Below the pieces are notes generated by a model, which searched no databases, had not been told where the DNA came from, and worked only from the letters and a program-made list of their open reading frames with translations. Positions 31,441 through 50,064 of a stretch of 64,000 bases of DNA are shown here, piece after piece. The stretch comes from a virus: IMG/VR virus record IMGVR_UViG_3300042447_000691; one strand, 5' to 3'. Every line of letters begins with the position of its first letter. Position 1 is the first letter of the stretch. Position numbers and translations under genes: made by a program.

Positions 31441-32340
31441 AAATCTAAATCCGACCGAAACAGTCGTCACAGTTAAAAAAAGCGAAGTAACACCTCCCTT
31501 TCTTTATATGTGAAACTAAATTAAGTCATTGGGCCGTGTATGGTCCATTAAAATAAACCACGAAAGTGGGATAAAGTGAACCCTTAGTGTGTTGGGTTTG
31601 CGTCTTGGTGAGTCTTCGGACTTGTCGAGATTGAGTACACAAGCGGGATACCGCTTAACCTTTAGTACCGAGGGCAACGCTGTAGGGAAAGTGGTTAGGT
31701 GAATTGGCAATGTGGGTTGTCAGTTTGAGATGGGAACATCGATAGGAATAACTCGTAGGGATATTGCAAAAAATAAGGTTATCCGATTTTATTATTGCGT
31801 GTTCCATTATGATAGGATACTTAAAACCGAAAGGTATGTTAGTGTACAAGTGGTGTTGTTACTAACCTTGACCGTCCCCTACCAAGGGTTCGATCTCGAA
31901 GTAGTCTTGAAATATTGAGATGGGGACATTTCACGGGGTAGTTTGGTATTTCGTTGTTCAAAAGATAACGAATCTAAAGACGGACCACTACTTCGATCAA
32001 TCCACGACACCAAACTTATGGAGCTTTAATTCCAATTAAAATTACATTAAGCAAAAGTGTTCGTCAGGTGTCAATGAAAGGTGACTACATAGTAACGAGC
32101 AGTTCGTTGCGTAGTGAGACCGCAAGTTGAACTACATTCTTACCAAAAACCTCTATTCCCGCAAGGAAGAGTTGGGACGGCAGTCTCGAAGAGAGTTGAG
32201 TAATGAGAGAGTAATTGATACCTCAAGGAGTGATTCACCTAAATAATCGTCACTGAGGAATACCATTCAAAAGATGGTGGATACGAAGGGAAACAATAAT
32301 CCTTCAAAAGGTTCTCAATAACAGGTATAATCTCAGCCTT
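31441..32340 (+). ncRNA. Large structured ncRNA, GOLLD-like candidate
   Basis: About 900 nt, GC-elevated, no credible ORF, many GNRA/UUCG hairpins (CCAC-GAAA-GTGG, GAGTC-TTCG-GACTT, TTCCC-GCAA-GGAA), own promoter and terminal U-run. Family assignment is from size and context only. Confidence 0.6.
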
Positions 32341-36019: not shown

Positions 36020-36091
36020 GGTTCCGTGGTGAAAGGGATATCACAGTAGATTTCTAATCTTCTATTCCTGGTTCGAGTCCAGGCGGGACTA
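36020..36091 (+). tRNA. tRNA-Arg(UCU)
   Basis: Cloverleaf; loop TT-TCT-AA; T-arm CCTGG-TTCGAGT-CCAGG. Confidence 0.85.
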
Positions 36092-41668: not shown

Positions 41669-42079
41669 ATGAAAAAAATTATTAGACTAACAGAATCCGA
41701 TTTAGCAAGAATTGTTAAAATGGTTATTTTTGAAACGTCTATGACAAAAGAACAAGTTAAAAGTTCAATATCTAATTTTATTAGTTCTTGTGTTAAAAAT
41801 ATGAAAGAACTTGATAATATTATGAGAGCAAGTGGTTATAGTGCTATTGCGATATTTTTAGGTGTGTGTAGTTTTTTAACTGTTGAAATTCCTGGAATCG
41901 CATTGATGTTCGGAGCATCCGCAATTAATTTTGGTACACAAGCATATAAGGAAATAAGTGGAATATACACATCACTAAAAACAGAAGAAAAAAAATCACA
42001 ATTTAAAAATAAATGTAATAATGTTTTTACTTGTGTATCTAATAAAATAGAAAACCAAGGGTTGTTAGATTTGTTATAA
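41669..42079 (+). CDS. Leader-family protein with hydrophobic segment
   Basis: [22 protein letters not shown]. Confidence 0.7.
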   Translation: MKKIIRLTESDLARIVKMVIFETSMTKEQVKSSISNFISSCVKNMKELDNIMRASGYSAIAIFLGVCSFLTVEIPGIALMFGASAINFGTQAYKEISGIYTSLKTEEKKSQFKNKCNNVFTCVSNKIENQGLLDLL

Positions 42080-43336: not shown

Positions 43337-43366
43337 TTGTCAATTAAAAAAAAATACCTATATTTG
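43337..43366 (+). promoter_or_regulatory. Bacteroidota-type promoter upstream of tRNA array 1
   Basis: TTG-N19-TATATTTG. Confidence 0.65.
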
Positions 43367-43411
43367 TAGTGTAATTAAAACTTTTAGAAAAAACTATATA
43401 TTTATAACAAG

Positions 43412-43522
43412 ATGAGAACAACTAATAAACATATGAACATTTGTAACCCGAGCATTCAGTGGTCGTTTAACGTGTATCGTACGCTTAAGTCGCATATTAG
43501 GGCATTTTCATTTATGAGTTGA
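43412..43522 (+). CDS. Putative leader peptide 1 (36 aa)
   Basis: MRTTNKHMNICNPSIQWSFNVYRTLKSHIRAFSFMS, tandem TGA TAA stops, followed by a terminator and then tRNAs. Confidence 0.6.
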   Translation: MRTTNKHMNICNPSIQWSFNVYRTLKSHIRAFSFMS

Positions 43523-43556
43523 TAAAGATTAACTAAAAATATAAAAGAAATATAAG

Positions 43557-43586
43557 ACCCGAACTCAAAACAGTTCGGGTTTTTTT
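43557..43586 (+). terminator. Intrinsic terminator / attenuator 1
   Basis: ACCCGAAC/GTTCGGGT stem plus T-tract, 14 nt before tRNA-Thr. Confidence 0.8.
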
Positions 43587-43600
43587 ATACCCAAAAATTT

Positions 43601-43673
43601 GGTTCCTTAGTATAGTTTGGTAATATCCCGGCTTTGTAACCCGGAGTCATCAGTTCGAACCTGATAGGAACCT
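43601..43673 (+). tRNA. tRNA-Thr(UGU)
   Basis: GGTTCCT/AGGAACC acceptor; loop TT-TGT-AA. Confidence 0.8.
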
Positions 43674-43716
43674 CAAACAAAAAGAAAAAGTTCTTTGACA
43701 TATTGGCTTCATAAAA

Positions 43717-43800
43717 GGAGAGATAATCACAACGGCTTGTGACTCCGTCTTGAAAACGGCAGGTACTGAAAGGTATGGGGGTCGGCACCTCATCTCTCCT
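43717..43800 (+). tRNA. tRNA-Ser(UGA)
   Basis: Loop CT-TGA-AA, long variable arm, atypical T-loop. Confidence 0.75.
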
Positions 43801-43808
43801 CTGTAAAT

Positions 43809-43893
43809 TGCGGGGTAGACGAATTAGGCAAAGTCACCAGATTTTGACTCTGGAGGTAAATTACCATTGGAGGTTCGATCCCTCCCCCCGTAG
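43809..43893 (+). tRNA. tRNA-Gln(UUG) with long variable arm
   Basis: CCAGA-TTTTGAC-TCTGG; extra GGTAAATTACC hairpin. Confidence 0.8.
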
Positions 43894-43907
43894 CTAAAAA
43901 ACAATAT

Positions 43908-43981
43908 CTAGGTGTAGCTCAGTTTGGTAGAGCGGGGAGTTTGGGACTCTCAGGTCGCAGGTTCGATCCCTGTCACTTAGA
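43908..43981 (+). tRNA. tRNA-Pro(UGG)
   Basis: Loop TT-TGG-GA; canonical arms. Confidence 0.9.
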
Positions 43982-43985
43982 CAAC

Positions 43986-44061
43986 GTCTTCGTAGCTCAG
44001 TTGGTTTTAGAGCACTCCACTTTTAATGGAGGGGTCACAGGTTCGATTCCTGTCGGGGACA
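43986..44061 (+). tRNA. tRNA-Lys(UUU)
   Basis: CTCCA-CTTTTAA-TGGAG. Confidence 0.9.
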
Positions 44062-44130
44062 CAAAAAAATTTAGTAAAAAAGAACGATAGTTACCAAAAA
44101 ATGGTTATCTTCGTTCCAAGAAACTAAAAT

Positions 44131-44204
44131 ACACTCTTAGCTCAGATGGTAGTAGCGGTTGTTTTACATACAACAGGTCACAGGTTCAAACCCTGTAGAG
44201 TGTA
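44131..44204 (+). tRNA. tRNA-Val(UAC)
   Basis: GTTGT-TTTACAT-ACAAC. Confidence 0.88.
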
Positions 44205-44214
44205 CAAAAAATAA

Positions 44215-44295
44215 GGAAGTGTTGAGCATTTGGCTGGCTCGCTTGACTGTAGATCAAGTCCGAAAGGCGTGTAGGTTCGACCCCTACCACTTCCA
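44215..44295 (+). tRNA. tRNA-Tyr(GUA)
   Basis: CTTGA-CTGTAGA-TCAAG, variable arm. Confidence 0.88.
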
Positions 44296-44303
44296 CAACA
44301 AAT

Positions 44304-44392
44304 TGATGGGTGTCCCGAGATGGCCGAAGGGTCCGGCCTGTTAAGCCGATGAGAAATATTCTCCACCGTGGGTTCGAATCCCACCCCATCAG
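44304..44392 (+). tRNA. tRNA-Asn(GUU) with long variable arm
   Basis: CGGC-CTGTTAA-GCCG; extra GAGAAATATTCTC hairpin; G73. Confidence 0.8.
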
Positions 44393-44442
44393 CTGATTTT
44401 TTCCGAACTATCAGATATTTATTAATATAAAATGTTAATATT

Positions 44443-44985
44443 ATGGAAAGGTATTCGGAAAAAATTATATCTTTGAGGAAAGAAGGGAAAACCTACAAAG
44501 AGATTACTAAAATTTTAGGTTGTGCAATGTCAACAGTGTCGTATCATTGTCAGATACATAAATTGGGGGATAACAACCAAAAAGTGACGGAAGAAGAGAA
44601 AGATAAACTTCAAAAATTATACGATGAAGTAGGATCCTTAAAAAAAGTTGCAAGGATAACAGGTAGGTCTTTTGAAACTGTTAAAAAACACGTTAATAGT
44701 GTGGTTAGAGTTAAAAAGATTAGTGGTTCCCAATCGGTTATATTGTGGAGAAAGAGAACTAAAAAGAAATTAATTGAATATAAGGGGGGAGGATGTGAAT
44801 TGTGTGGGTATAGTAAATGTGATTCAGCATTACAATTTCACCATAAAAACCCTGACGAAAAAGATTTCTCAATTTCTGGTAGAAGTTTGTCTTTTGACAG
44901 ATTAAAAGAAGAAGTTGATAAATGTATGTTGGTGTGTTCTAACTGTCACGCCGAAATACACGAAAAAAATACCACCGAGAAGTGA
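44443..44985 (+). CDS. HTH + HNH homing endonuclease within tRNA array
   Basis: N-terminal HTH repeats; CELCG...LQFHH...KCMLVCSNCHAEIH. Confidence 0.85.
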   Translation: MERYSEKIISLRKEGKTYKEITKILGCAMSTVSYHCQIHKLGDNNQKVTEEEKDKLQKLYDEVGSLKKVARITGRSFETVKKHVNSVVRVKKISGSQSVILWRKRTKKKLIEYKGGGCELCGYSKCDSALQFHHKNPDEKDFSISGRSLSFDRLKEEVDKCMLVCSNCHAEIHEKNTTEK

Positions 44986-45044
44986 CTGACGAGTCCGATG
45001 ACGAGCTGAGGGGGTGGTTAAGAAATACCCCTAAATACGTACCA

Positions 45045-45117
45045 GTTCACGTAGCTCAATTGGTAGAGCGCCGATCTGATACGTCGGAGGTAATGGGATC
45101 GTAACCCGTCGTGAACA
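45045..45117 (+). tRNA. tRNA-Ile(GAU)
   Basis: CCGAT-CTGATAC-GTCGG; T-loop ATCGTAA. Confidence 0.85.
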
Positions 45118-45175
45118 CAAAAAGGGGGATAACTTGTGTGGGTGCCCCAACTACTGCAGTAGTACCACACTCTAT

Positions 45176-45264
45176 GGAAAGTAAACCCTGAAGGCGACGG
45201 GACATGCCTGCTAAGCATTGTGATCGGTGAAAATCCGATTGTGGATCGTTACCACTGCTTTCCG
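45176..45264 (+). tRNA. tRNA-Ser(GCU)
   Basis: ATGC-CTGCTAA-GCAT, long variable arm, T-loop ATCGTTA. Confidence 0.8.
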
Positions 45265-45268
45265 CAAC

Positions 45269-45338
45269 TCCCGTATGATCAGGGATCAAAGTTGGCTCAT
45301 ATCCTACTTGAGGTTGGTTCAAGTCCAACATACGGGAC
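45269..45338 (+). tRNA. tRNA-Met/Ile2(CAU) with reduced D-arm
   Basis: TCCCGTA/TACGGGA acceptor; loop CT-CAT-AT; T-arm GTTGG-TTCAAGT-CCAAC. Confidence 0.6.
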
Positions 45339-45344
45339 TTATAT

Positions 45345-45418
45345 GGTGTATGTAGCTCAGTTGGTAGAGTGTCGGTTTGTGGAACCGAAGGTCGTGGGAT
45401 CGTGACCCATCATACACA
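45345..45418 (+). tRNA. tRNA-His(GUG)
   Basis: TCGGT-TTGTGGA-ACCGA; encoded G-1; T-loop ATCGTGA. Confidence 0.85.
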
Positions 45419-45420
45419 CA

Positions 45421-45589
45421 AAAGATGATAAGAAGCGTAGAATGACAGACGTGGAGAGACGTGTCGCAAGGGTACAAACTAAGGATAGGTATTCAATCTT
45501 AATTGTATTGATGTAATAACCCAACTCTCTAATGGTGTGTGAAGGTTTCCAAACCAAGATTCCTGATAAAGTCATTCATCATCTTTTTT
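45421..45589 (+). ncRNA. Candidate ~170-nt end-paired structured RNA
   Basis: AAAGATGAT/ATCATCTTT and GAATGAC/GTCATTC closing stems; inner GGAGAG/CTCTCT and GGGT/ACCC. Confidence 0.5.
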
Positions 45590-45628
45590 TGACATCCGAT
45601 GTCGGTCCCGAGCTAGGTCGGGCAATTT

Positions 45629-45699
45629 GCGTGGTACAGACAAGGTGTCGGTCAGGTCTCCAAAACCTCGACGGGTTAGTTCGATTCTAACACCACGCG
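45629..45699 (+). tRNA. tRNA-Trp(CCA)
   Basis: AGGT-CTCCAAA-ACCT; GCGTGGT/ACCACGC acceptor. Confidence 0.8.
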
Positions 45700-45709
45700 C
45701 AAATAACAA

Positions 45710-45782
45710 GGACTCGTAGCTCAGTTGGTAGAGCACAGGACTGAAAATCCTGGTGTGGTCGGTTCGATTCCGTCCGAGTCCA
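45710..45782 (+). tRNA. tRNA-Phe(GAA)
   Basis: CAGGA-CTGAAAA-TCCTG. Confidence 0.92.
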
Positions 45783-45799
45783 CAAAACAAATAGAAATA

Positions 45800-46255
45800 A
45801 TGAACAGAGTATTTAGAACGGTTAACGGTGAAACAATTCCTGATGTGGTAAAACATACCTTAGATGTTCTGAAAGAATGTCCATGGGTGGAAGTACACAT
45901 CGGTACAGACTCACAAAACCACAGAAGAAGTACCGTGTATGTTACGGTAATAGCTTATAGGTATGGGAATAGGGGTGTCCATTATATTCTTCACAAACAG
46001 AAAGTGAAAAAAATAAGAGATAAATGGACACGTCTTTGGAATGAGGCCGATTATTCAATTGAGGTTGCCGAATGGTTAACCAAAAAAGTAAAGGTGCAAG
46101 TTGAGATTGACTTAGATTATAATAGTCAGGAAAAACATTTCAGTTCAAAACTTGTTCCTCCTGTTGTTGGGTGGGCAACATCGTTGGGTTATAAAACAAA
46201 TATTAAACCTGACAACCAAATTGCAACAAAAGCGGCAGATCACCACTGCCGTTAA
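45800..46255 (+). CDS. RNase H-like YkuK/DUF458 family protein
   Basis: HIGTDSQ...RLWNEA..SIEVA...EIDLDYN...AAD. Confidence 0.75.
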   Translation: MNRVFRTVNGETIPDVVKHTLDVLKECPWVEVHIGTDSQNHRRSTVYVTVIAYRYGNRGVHYILHKQKVKKIRDKWTRLWNEADYSIEVAEWLTKKVKVQVEIDLDYNSQEKHFSSKLVPPVVGWATSLGYKTNIKPDNQIATKAADHHCR

Positions 46256-46260
46256 TATAA

Positions 46261-46332
46261 GGACCTATGACCGAGAGATTTAGGTGCCGGTCTGCAAAAC
46301 CGGTTAGATTGGTTTGATTCCAATTAGGTCCT
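46261..46332 (+). tRNA. tRNA-Cys(GCA)
   Basis: CCGGT-CTGCAAA-ACCGG. Confidence 0.88.
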
Positions 46333-46339
46333 CAATAAT

Positions 46340-46420
46340 ACCTTCGTGGTGGAACGGTAGACACGTCAGATTTAGGATCTGATGCCGTAAGGTGTGAGAG
46401 TTCGAGTCTCTCCGAAGGTA
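46340..46420 (+). tRNA. tRNA-Leu(UAG)
   Basis: TCAGA-TTTAGGA-TCTGA, variable arm. Confidence 0.9.
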
Positions 46421-46505
46421 CAAAAAAGATTGATCCGTTATCTGTTGTGAAACACGTAACGGATTTTTTTGTATATTGATATATTTATATATAAAATAAA
46501 ATATT

Positions 46506-47580: not shown

Positions 47581-47640
47581 ATAAAACTTGACACTTTTGA
47601 AAAGTATCATATATTTATAACAAAACAAATAAAAACGCAA

Positions 47641-47715
47641 ATGAAAAATTTACATATCATATTATTAGGCGGATTGGCGATAGCTGAGGATCGTTCCTAT
47701 AAGGAGATGGTATGA
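47641..47715 (+). CDS. Putative leader peptide 2 (24 aa)
   Basis: MKNLHIILLGGLAIAEDRSYKEMV, tandem TGA TAA stops, followed by a terminator. Confidence 0.6.
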   Translation: MKNLHIILLGGLAIAEDRSYKEMV

Positions 47716-47740
47716 TAAATTAATTATATAATAAATTTTG

Positions 47741-47772
47741 AAACCCATCTCAATTACGAGGTGGGTTTTTTT
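47741..47772 (+). terminator. Intrinsic terminator / attenuator 2
   Basis: AAACCCATCTC/GAGGTGGGTTT stem plus T-tract; its 5' arm CCATCTC is complementary to GAGATGG in leader 2. Confidence 0.8.
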
Positions 47773-47810
47773 GTTCTTTGACATATTGGTAAAAAAAAGT
47801 TTAAAAAAGA

Positions 47811-47842
47811 TTTGGTAGATCAAAATAGATTACATATCTTTG
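47811..47842 (+). promoter_or_regulatory. Bacteroidota-type promoter
   Basis: TTTG-N20-TATCTTTG. Confidence 0.75.
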
Positions 47843-47987
47843 TAAAACAAATAAGGAAAAAAGGTTCTTTGAAATATTAAAAATATTGTGGTTGTAAGAA
47901 ACGGGAAACTCGTAAAGTGCATTAACCTGTTGACTCAAGATGGTGAAACGAGAGTTTGAGTCAACTACTAAACTACAAATGGTATAT

Positions 47988-48059
47988 CGCAGGATAGAGC
48001 AGTGGTAGCTCGCAAGGCTCATAACCTTGAGGTCGGAGGTTCGAACCCTTCTCCTGCAA
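47988..48059 (+). tRNA. Initiator tRNA-fMet(CAU)
   Basis: C1:A72 mismatch; loop CT-CAT-AA. Confidence 0.85.
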
Positions 48060-49927: not shown

Positions 49928-49966
49928 CACTTGACATTATTAAATTAATGTCTTATTATTATACAA

Positions 49967-50039
49967 AACCGGGTAGCTCAGCTGGTAGAGCAATCCTTTT
50001 TAAACAGGACGTGTCATTGGTTCAATCCCTTTCCCGGTT
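49967..50039 (+). pseudogene. Degenerate tRNA (Lys-like)
   Basis: Good D-arm, 8-nt anticodon loop TTTTAAAC, mismatched T-stem. Confidence 0.5.
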
Positions 50040-50064
50040 TTTTTATTTATAAAATTAAAATATT

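Follow-up and report, generated by a model that had tools for sequence, protein, structure and literature searches.

A putative leader-peptide attenuator listing 15 amino acids precedes the main tRNA array of a large phage

The main tRNA operon of the phage studied here is preceded by a short leader (unit 1) that very probably acts as a ribosome-mediated (leader-peptide) transcription attenuator gating the operon; judging from its sequence and that of its relatives, we put the probability of this reading at about 0.8. The window, i.e., the whole stretch of 64,000 nucleotides that was analysed, is part of a 109-kb IMG/VR virus record (IMGVR_UViG_3300042447_000691) whose completeness is estimated at about 37%. 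In it, a promoter of the Bacteroidota type, a 36-codon ORF, a strong intrinsic terminator, and tRNA-Thr, the first of 15 tRNA genes, follow each other in this order. A first-pass annotation of the same sequence had described the promoter, the ORF, and a terminator ending 14 nt before tRNA-Thr, and all of them were confirmed at the same positions, making the description correct as written. Its interpretation as attenuation is supported by a conserved ORF, a conserved roster of amino acids in the encoded peptide, a competing RNA fold (weak in the window's own sequence), and independent leaders matched to their own tRNA arrays. The elements of the region are the following (all on the + strand).

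43337..43366, +, promoter of Bacteroidota type (TTG-19 nt-TAnnTTTG), with positions invariant in alignment A1
43367..43411, +, 5' untranslated leader without a Shine-Dalgarno (SD) motif, from the alignments
43412..43522, +, leader ORF of 36 codons plus TGA, with an ATG start and a conserved frame
43412..43486, +, roster (putative sensor) zone, codons 1-25, with at least one codon for each amino acid of array 1, among them the invariant rare codons CCG, TCG, and ACG as well as TGG and TAT
43499..43517, +, candidate 5' strand of the antiterminator, codons 30-36, from AGGGCA to the last sense codon, from folding and covariation
43516..43533, +, small hairpin with the stop codon, the putative apex of the antiterminator, from folding and covariation
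43539..43561, +, candidate 3' strand of the antiterminator (A-rich flank and GACCC core of the terminator 5' arm), from folding and covariation
43553..43587, +, intrinsic terminator, with a stem of 11-12 bp, a 6-nt loop, and T7
43601..46421, +, tRNA array 1, the proposed regulated unit, called by ARAGORN and with embedded ORFs
43690..43706, +, conserved 17-mer GTTCTTTGACATATTGG, found 3' of both leader-terminator modules
47588..47776, +, paralogous second attenuator (unit 2), with its promoter at 47588, an ORF, and a terminator

The leader is conserved in related viral contigs

The large proteins encoded in the window match only uncultured phages of 480-735 kb and one Microcystis phage. SD-like motifs precede just 2 of its 53 long ORFs, which are A-rich at -3, -6, and -11, and TAnnTTTG boxes are recurrent. 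Because of these promoter and initiation features, the host, which is uncultured, is probably a member of the Bacteroidota. We retrieved related contigs using a 17-mer that lies 3' of both leader modules and a leader-internal pattern, and found the leader in 46 loci of related viral contigs in IMG/VR. The comparisons below use an alignment of 15 orthologous loci (A1) and one of 30 distinct leader sequences (A2). When the region was compared by blastn with 50,697 public phage records, the leader was absent from the matches, which concerned the tRNAs only. In 44 of 45 related loci, tRNA-Thr(UGU) begins 11-17 nt 3' of the terminator as the first gene of the same long array (Thr, (Ser), Gln, Pro, Lys, Val, Tyr, Asn, Ile, etc.).

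The promoter consists of TTG (43337-43339), 19 nt, and TATATTTG (43359-43366), and can alternatively be read as TTGTCA-16-TATATT. Its TTG and TAnnTTTG positions are invariant across the 15 loci of A1. Between this promoter and position 47588 there is no second match to the TTG-19-TAnnTTTG pattern, and hence none inside array 1. The 5' leader contains a conserved block, ATATATTTATAACAA (43396-43410), that is common to units 1 and 2. The distance to the ATG of the ORF is about 40 nt from the predicted transcription start and about 45 nt from the promoter, and the ATG has A at -3 and -6, as in the genes of the phage.

The terminator has a stem at 43553-43579 with a GACCCGAAC core, followed by T7 up to 43586, and a predicted energy of -15 to -16 kcal/mol (-14 to -18 kcal/mol across clusters of relatives). 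Compensatory changes affect 4 of its pairs among the 30 sequences. It is the sole structure returned by RNAalifold for the full leader alignment, and a scan of helices over all pairs of positions revealed, apart from it, weak AU helices only. No Rfam family matched the leader at its gathering threshold. The sub-threshold matches to Thr_leader (RF00506, 24.7 bits for a threshold of 55) and Trp_leader (RF00513, 20.6 bits for a threshold of 41) lie mainly over the terminator. A T-box was matched in Rfam neither at the gathering threshold nor at E<=1.

The reading frame is conserved but the peptide is free to vary

The first-pass annotation had proposed to look for the ORF in related phages. We found it open in all the 41 related loci tested that hold it complete (34-36 codons), and also in three more divergent loci (36-37 codons). 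All the indels within the ORF in A2 are multiples of three, whereas those of the 5' untranslated region, the 3' spacer, and the terminator loop are of 1, 2, or 7 nt. The position of the stop codon is kept, being two codons further on in the most divergent cluster. The peptides themselves differ on average by 33% between pairs (30 distinct sequences), the ratio pN/pS is about 0.8 (Nei-Gojobori), and the variable columns are equally distributed among the three codon positions (26/26/26). Neither this peptide nor that of unit 2 has a match in Pfam or PHROGs. An open frame, indels in multiples of three, a kept stop codon, and a pN/pS close to 0.8 together suggest that it is the translation of the ORF, and not its product, that matters. 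The sequence data thus indicate that selection acts on the frame and not on the amino-acid sequence as such, which fits a regulatory leader ORF and not a functional small protein. Several blocks of the ORF are invariant even at synonymous sites, including one at codons 16-19, and the helices that we found do not account for them.

The amino acids of the leader follow the tRNAs of the array

Array 1 encodes, in this order, Thr, (Ser-like), Gln, Pro, Lys, Val, Tyr, Asn, Ile, Ser, Met, His, Trp, Phe, Cys, and Leu. ARAGORN identifies 12 tRNAs with default parameters; Ser(GCU), Met, and Trp are called once the threshold is relaxed, bringing the total to 15 amino acids. Rfam gives a tRNA-like match at 45628-45699, and a terminator-like hairpin (46440-46464) follows the array. 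The tRNAs for Gly, Ala, Glu, and Asp are in a second array, after position 47988. The Ser-like element (43718-43800) is a remnant of a Ser(UGA) tRNA that neither ARAGORN nor Rfam calls in the window; several relatives have a called Ser(UGA) gene at this place.

The leader peptide had been reported to use 17 kinds of amino acids, including all 15 of the array, and to lack G, D, and E; the peptide and the tRNA calls confirm this. The roster zone alone has 16 kinds in 25 codons. A random 36-mer with the composition of the phage covers the 15 amino acids with P=0.004 and is free of G, D, and E with P=0.0003, and a random 25-mer covers the 15 with P=1e-4. The simple enrichment in composition is modest when unit 1 is taken alone (31/35, P=0.024).

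The annotation had suggested that coverage be compared across relatives. All 15 amino acids are present in the 30 distinct orthologous peptides, even though residues change place, and in each case the set is complete by codon 22-25. This leaves 11-13 codons, which carry the alternative RNA structure described below. Trp, Tyr, Pro (CCG), and one Thr (ACG in 29 of the 30 peptides) are fixed in place, and a TCG Ser codon is found in all. Cys occupies three different columns depending on the cluster, and His, Ile, Val, Leu, and Gln were lost at one position and are present at another in single lineages. Full coverage is rare under three null models: shuffling columns among 8 representative lineages (p=1e-4), simulating neutral nucleotide evolution on the tree (0 of 300 simulations for each of four roots), and a tree-aware model with column-specific rates and residue repertoires that is conditioned on a complete ancestor (p=0.009). 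Of the amino acids served by the second array, E is absent from the 30 peptides, and D and G are each found in 2, always at the most variable column.

A point against the proposed rule is that the leader keeps Arg and Ala codons though array 1 of the window has no matching tRNAs. Arg is present in 29 of the 30 peptides, and the arrays of relatives include Arg(ACG) and Arg(UCU), neither of which is in array 1 of the window. No leader precedes the tRNA-Arg gene at 36020. Regarding codon choice, the ORF had been noted for codons ending in G or C that are unusual in this genome. The G-ending ones are indeed there (CCG, TCG twice, ACG, CAG, GTG, AAG, and AGG), and the usage in the long ORFs of the window is low for CCG (0.14), TCG (0.08), ACG (0.12), and CAG (0.18). 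We set aside matching at the codon level (excess of Leu CTN, Gln CAG, and Arg CGN) as evidence, because the higher G+C content of the leader may alone account for it.

Other leaders obey the same rule

The statement that the peptide lists the downstream tRNAs extends beyond unit 1: it holds for unit 2 and for five leaders, with differently sorted tRNAs, of another phage. Unit 2 has a 24-codon ORF (47641-47715) and a terminator (47740-47776), and is followed by tRNAs for Met, Ile(UAU), Gly, Ala, Glu, and Asp. In all 17 orthologues its peptide includes M, G, A, E, and D, as well as I, for which at least one codon is always ATA. The ORF ends in codons that copy the terminator 3' arm (-10.3 kcal/mol) and that co-vary with the terminator 5' arm in several variants among these 17 orthologues. 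A further consensus promoter (47812-47842) lies between the unit 2 terminator and tRNA-Met, and the untranslated stretch between this promoter and tRNA-Met contains a perfect 10-bp hairpin (47930-47966) without a match in Rfam.

The 17-mer GTTCTTTGACATATTGG is found at 43690-43706 and 47773-47789, with a degenerate copy at 47864-47880. Its placement is kept in most relatives, and it ends 11 nt before the next tRNA. The copy after tRNA-Thr contains a perfect TTGACA, and we found no -10 or -7 element at a usable spacing from the 17-mer. It is a candidate for a promoter of another kind, a processing site, or a protein site. If it were a promoter, the attenuator would gate tRNA-Thr only.

The other phage, LR745206.1, is an uncultured phage of 634 kb that shares proteins and promoter type with the window. 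Its tRNAs are sorted into five sub-arrays, and every one of these is preceded by its own promoter, short ORF, and terminator. The leader ORFs and the tRNAs that follow them are listed below.

L149:5335-5451 (LR745206.1), leader ORF, then tRNAs for Asn, Arg, Leu, Val, Ile, Thr, Met
L152:1369-1464 (LR745206.1), leader ORF, then tRNAs for His, Phe, Trp, Lys
L158:3631-3705 (LR745206.1), leader ORF, then tRNAs for Arg, Ser
L155:1559-1645 (LR745206.1), leader ORF, then tRNAs for Tyr, Glu
L158:26082-26165 (LR745206.1), leader ORF, then tRNAs for Ile, Gly, Met, Ala

In one of these leaders, 29 of the 37 residues are from the 7 amino acids of its own array (P=3e-6), and in another 11 of the 23 residues are Arg or Ser (P=3e-6). 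The true pairing of leaders and arrays in LR745206.1 is the best of the 120 permutations. When the two units of the window are added, it ranks among the top 2 of 5040 (p ~4e-4). In the LR745206.1 leaders the antiterminator within the ORF is a plain copy of the terminator 3' arm, placed directly after the roster; such copies, in these leaders and in unit 2, have energies of -8 to -15.6 kcal/mol. The same phage has a 14-codon leader (L151:1500-1670) with a copy of the 3' arm of its terminator within the ORF, placed before a 67-aa basic ORF and a 211-aa ORF (1907-2542). By eye, the latter looks like a class II synthetase/HisZ-like protein. This leader would then be an attenuator on a translation gene that is not a tRNA.

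A candidate competing structure lies at the end of the ORF

When unit 1 is folded without the terminator 3' arm, the 5' arm finds its partner in every cluster within the last 7-9 codons of the ORF, and a long imperfect hairpin results. This recovers, as the fold preceding the synthesis of the terminator 3' arm, the pairing between GGGC..AGTTGAT and ATTAACT..GACCC that had been suggested from the window, with partial covariation. Pair 142-213, which joins the ORF to the terminator arm, is C-G in 13 sequences and U-A in 11, and a pair of the stop-codon hairpin (171-176) is U-A in 18 and A-U in 7, both representing few independent events. The stop-codon hairpin is kept in cluster D in another register. 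A second suggested pairing, between AACCCGAGC and the terminator 3' arm, can form in the window, but we do not regard it as conserved: in relatives the sequence is AACCGAG or AACCGAA and the terminator has changed too, with no compensation.

A competing antiterminator fold thus exists in every cluster, as had been anticipated, but it is weak in the window's own. There, the duplex has -7.5 kcal/mol and the whole alternative hairpin -10.3 kcal/mol, against -15 to -16 kcal/mol for the terminator. In relatives, the alternative hairpin has -9 to -14 kcal/mol in clusters B and C and -18 to -22 kcal/mol in cluster D. Relative to dinucleotide shuffles, the duplex and ensemble energies are significant in cluster D only, and not in clusters A-C, which include the window. 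On A2, 82% of the cells of the antiterminator are paired, compared with 78% in shuffles and 32-61% for slid partners. Its position and the design that it shares with the family lead us to rate the unit 1 antiterminator as present, if weak in the window. This weaker candidate is in the same place, just after the roster, as its counterparts in unit 2 and in LR745206.1.

In the minimum-energy fold, the region of the start codon is paired to the U-rich segment of the antiterminator 5' strand, and both partners are invariant. This candidate anti-antiterminator (1:2 pairing) would allow termination in the absence of translation. We simulated the masking of the RNA by ribosomes, a check that had also been proposed from the window sequence. 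In this crude model, the terminator 5' arm stays free without ribosomes (probability of being paired 0.05) and is paired with a probability of 0.3-0.6 when a ribosome is on the start or early codons. Sequestration is greatest with ribosomes on the start and the middle of the ORF, low when a ribosome is at the stop or the ORF is fully covered, and least with no ribosome or with a queue at the stop. A single ribosome at the stop leaves the GGG core of the 5' strand uncovered in this simple model. The results match the classical 1:2 / 2:3 / 3:4 scheme in their direction, but for the window the effects are small, and they vary with the model used.

A model for the control of the tRNA operon

From these sequence features, we infer the translation of the leader, the stalling of ribosomes on it, the direction of the switch, and its physiological trigger. 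Transcription would start at the 43337-43366 promoter and ribosomes would load on the SD-less ORF. If codons 1-25 are decoded fast, the ribosome would run through the last 11 codons to the stop and, at the end of the ORF, melt or occupy the antiterminator 5' strand (43499-43533). The terminator (43553-43587) could then form and RNA polymerase would stop 14 nt before tRNA-Thr. If a charged tRNA is scarce, any codon of the roster for it would be decoded slowly and the ribosome would stall upstream. The 3' end of the ORF might then pair with the 3' strand of the antiterminator (A-rich flank plus GACCC core), which would block the terminator and allow the transcription of the 15-tRNA array. The outcome would be a negative feedback on tRNA supply, with one multivalent sensor per whole array.

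A wider proposal can be made tentatively, and we regard it as doubtful. The leader might be a 15-channel sensor of decoding speed that works as an inducible switch for counter-defence or take-over, in which the loss of any one host tRNA brings the full replacement set. Together with unit 2, this would amount to modular amino-acid-addressed control in a clade of large and huge phages. Host tRNAs could be lost to an anticodon-nuclease defence, to host shut-off driven by the phage, or in effect to a mismatch between the AT-rich codon usage of the phage and the host pool. Unit 2 would provide a second channel for Met, Ile(AUA), Gly, Ala, Glu, and Asp.

The same data could be explained without attenuation if the ORF encoded a functional basic micro-protein of 36 aa, with its own promoter and terminator, and the tRNAs were expressed independently by leaky read-through or from another promoter, e.g., the 17-mer. 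The conservation of the ORF, its gene-like start context, the strength of the terminator relative to the weak antiterminator of unit 1, and the conserved TTGACA-containing motif after tRNA-Thr would all fit a small gene. A protein under selection is harder to reconcile with a pN/pS of about 0.8, equal variability at the three codon positions, residues that relocate rather than stay in place, and a peptide without a family in Pfam or PHROGs. Such a gene would also leave unexplained why the amino-acid content of seven leaders tracks the downstream tRNA set and why 44 of 45 loci have tRNA-Thr at a distance of 11-17 nt from the terminator. We thus find this explanation improbable.

About equally unlikely, in our view, is a leader in which the ORF is secondary and a trans-acting factor (an RNA-binding protein, an uncharged tRNA, or a small molecule) binds the conserved CAGTGGTCGTT, CCG, and ACGC. 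It would give a role to the ORF blocks that are invariant even at synonymous sites and that the helices leave unexplained, and the layout of promoter, leader, and terminator suits any mechanism of attenuation. Yet Rfam has no family at threshold for this leader (only the weak Thr_leader and Trp_leader matches below it), and a factor of this kind accounts neither for indels in multiples of three and a kept stop codon, which require translation, nor for a conserved roster and a codon logic that is shared by LR745206.1 leaders of unrelated sequence. The least probable explanation, a very remote one, is that a promoter-proximal terminator or a small RNA happens to overlap a fortuitous ORF, and that its coverage is a post hoc coincidence kept by descent. 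In favour of it, the pattern was indeed recognised only post hoc, the 30 orthologues share ancestry and do not count as 30 trials, and open frames of 36 codons arise by chance in AT-rich DNA at a rate of a few per cent. Against coincidence stand the tree-aware null, in which the ancestor is already complete (p=0.009), the independent leaders with other sequences and other tRNA sets that obey the same rule, and the indels, which are multiples of three in the ORF but not in its flanks. Attenuation through translation of the leader remains our preferred reading.

Relation to known attenuators

Multivalent leader-peptide attenuators are known in enterobacteria: the ilvGMEDA leader responds to Ile, Val, and Leu and the thr leader to Thr and Ile, and related leaders include trpL, hisL, leuL, and pheL. 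Like them, unit 1 has a short ORF near the promoter in which regulatory codons abound, and an intrinsic terminator separates this ORF from the genes to be expressed. A candidate alternative hairpin, overlapping the end of the ORF, likewise involves the terminator 5' arm. Ribosomes that stall because charged tRNA is lacking would be expected to cause read-through in either system. The differences are in what is regulated (tRNA genes of a phage instead of biosynthetic enzymes), in the codons (a near-minimal roster of 15 different amino acids instead of runs of one to three), and in the SD-less, Bacteroidota-like type of the host. There is no homology between them in sequence or at the level of Rfam.

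The control of pheST, thrS-type synthetase genes, and genes with T-box leaders also relies, as we propose for unit 1, on sensing charged tRNA and on premature termination before a gene of the translation apparatus. The pheST leader is specific to Phe. T-boxes have no ORF and bind uncharged tRNA directly, whereas unit 1 has an ORF and no T-box match in Rfam. To our knowledge, none of these systems controls tRNA genes. The short-ORF leaders that respond to antibiotics acting on the ribosome (bmrCD, vmlR, erm/cat) are also, as we propose for unit 1, broad sensors in which a ribosome stalled on a short ORF remodels the RNA so that transcription or translation continues. They often require a specific nascent peptide, whereas unit 1 tolerates changes in its peptide and conserves its codon content.

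Phage tRNA genes are usually seen as constitutive helpers of codon usage or as decoys against tRNA-cleaving defences. The first-pass annotation knew of no attenuation control for a phage tRNA array, and our full-text search of the literature likewise found no description of leader-peptide attenuation for tRNA genes, in phages, with a roster of 15 amino acids. The class of mechanism is a textbook one; its application to phage tRNA genes through such a leader is the part that we did not find in the literature and that appears to be new. The logic of trp and his attenuation would here be re-used on the tRNA genes themselves, with a leader whose codon content, and not its peptide sequence, evolves to mirror the tRNA set behind it. 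This offers a testable model for the feedback control of viral tRNA supply and a rule to predict which tRNAs form one transcription unit in uncultured huge phages. It would also be a natural multivalent sensor of translation speed, for 15 amino acids, that could be used as a reporter of decoding stress.

Other features near the arrays

Several other elements are found around the tRNA arrays. A GOLLD RNA (31934-32339), with a full-length Rfam match of 330 bits, lies about 11 kb upstream. An ORF within array 1 (44443-44985) encodes HTH domains (Pfam HTH_38 and others) at its N-terminus and is rich in Cys and His at its C-terminus; it is probably a homing-endonuclease-like insert. Five small ORFs, starting at 41669, 42100, 46506, 46777, and 47281, have a nearly identical N-terminus of about 20 residues. 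Finally, a tRNA-like gene at 49966-50041 (Rfam tRNA, 42 bits) has an anticodon loop of 8 nt, for which ARAGORN gives the anticodon 'ttaa', and is directly preceded by a promoter-like TTGACA-17-TATTAT site.
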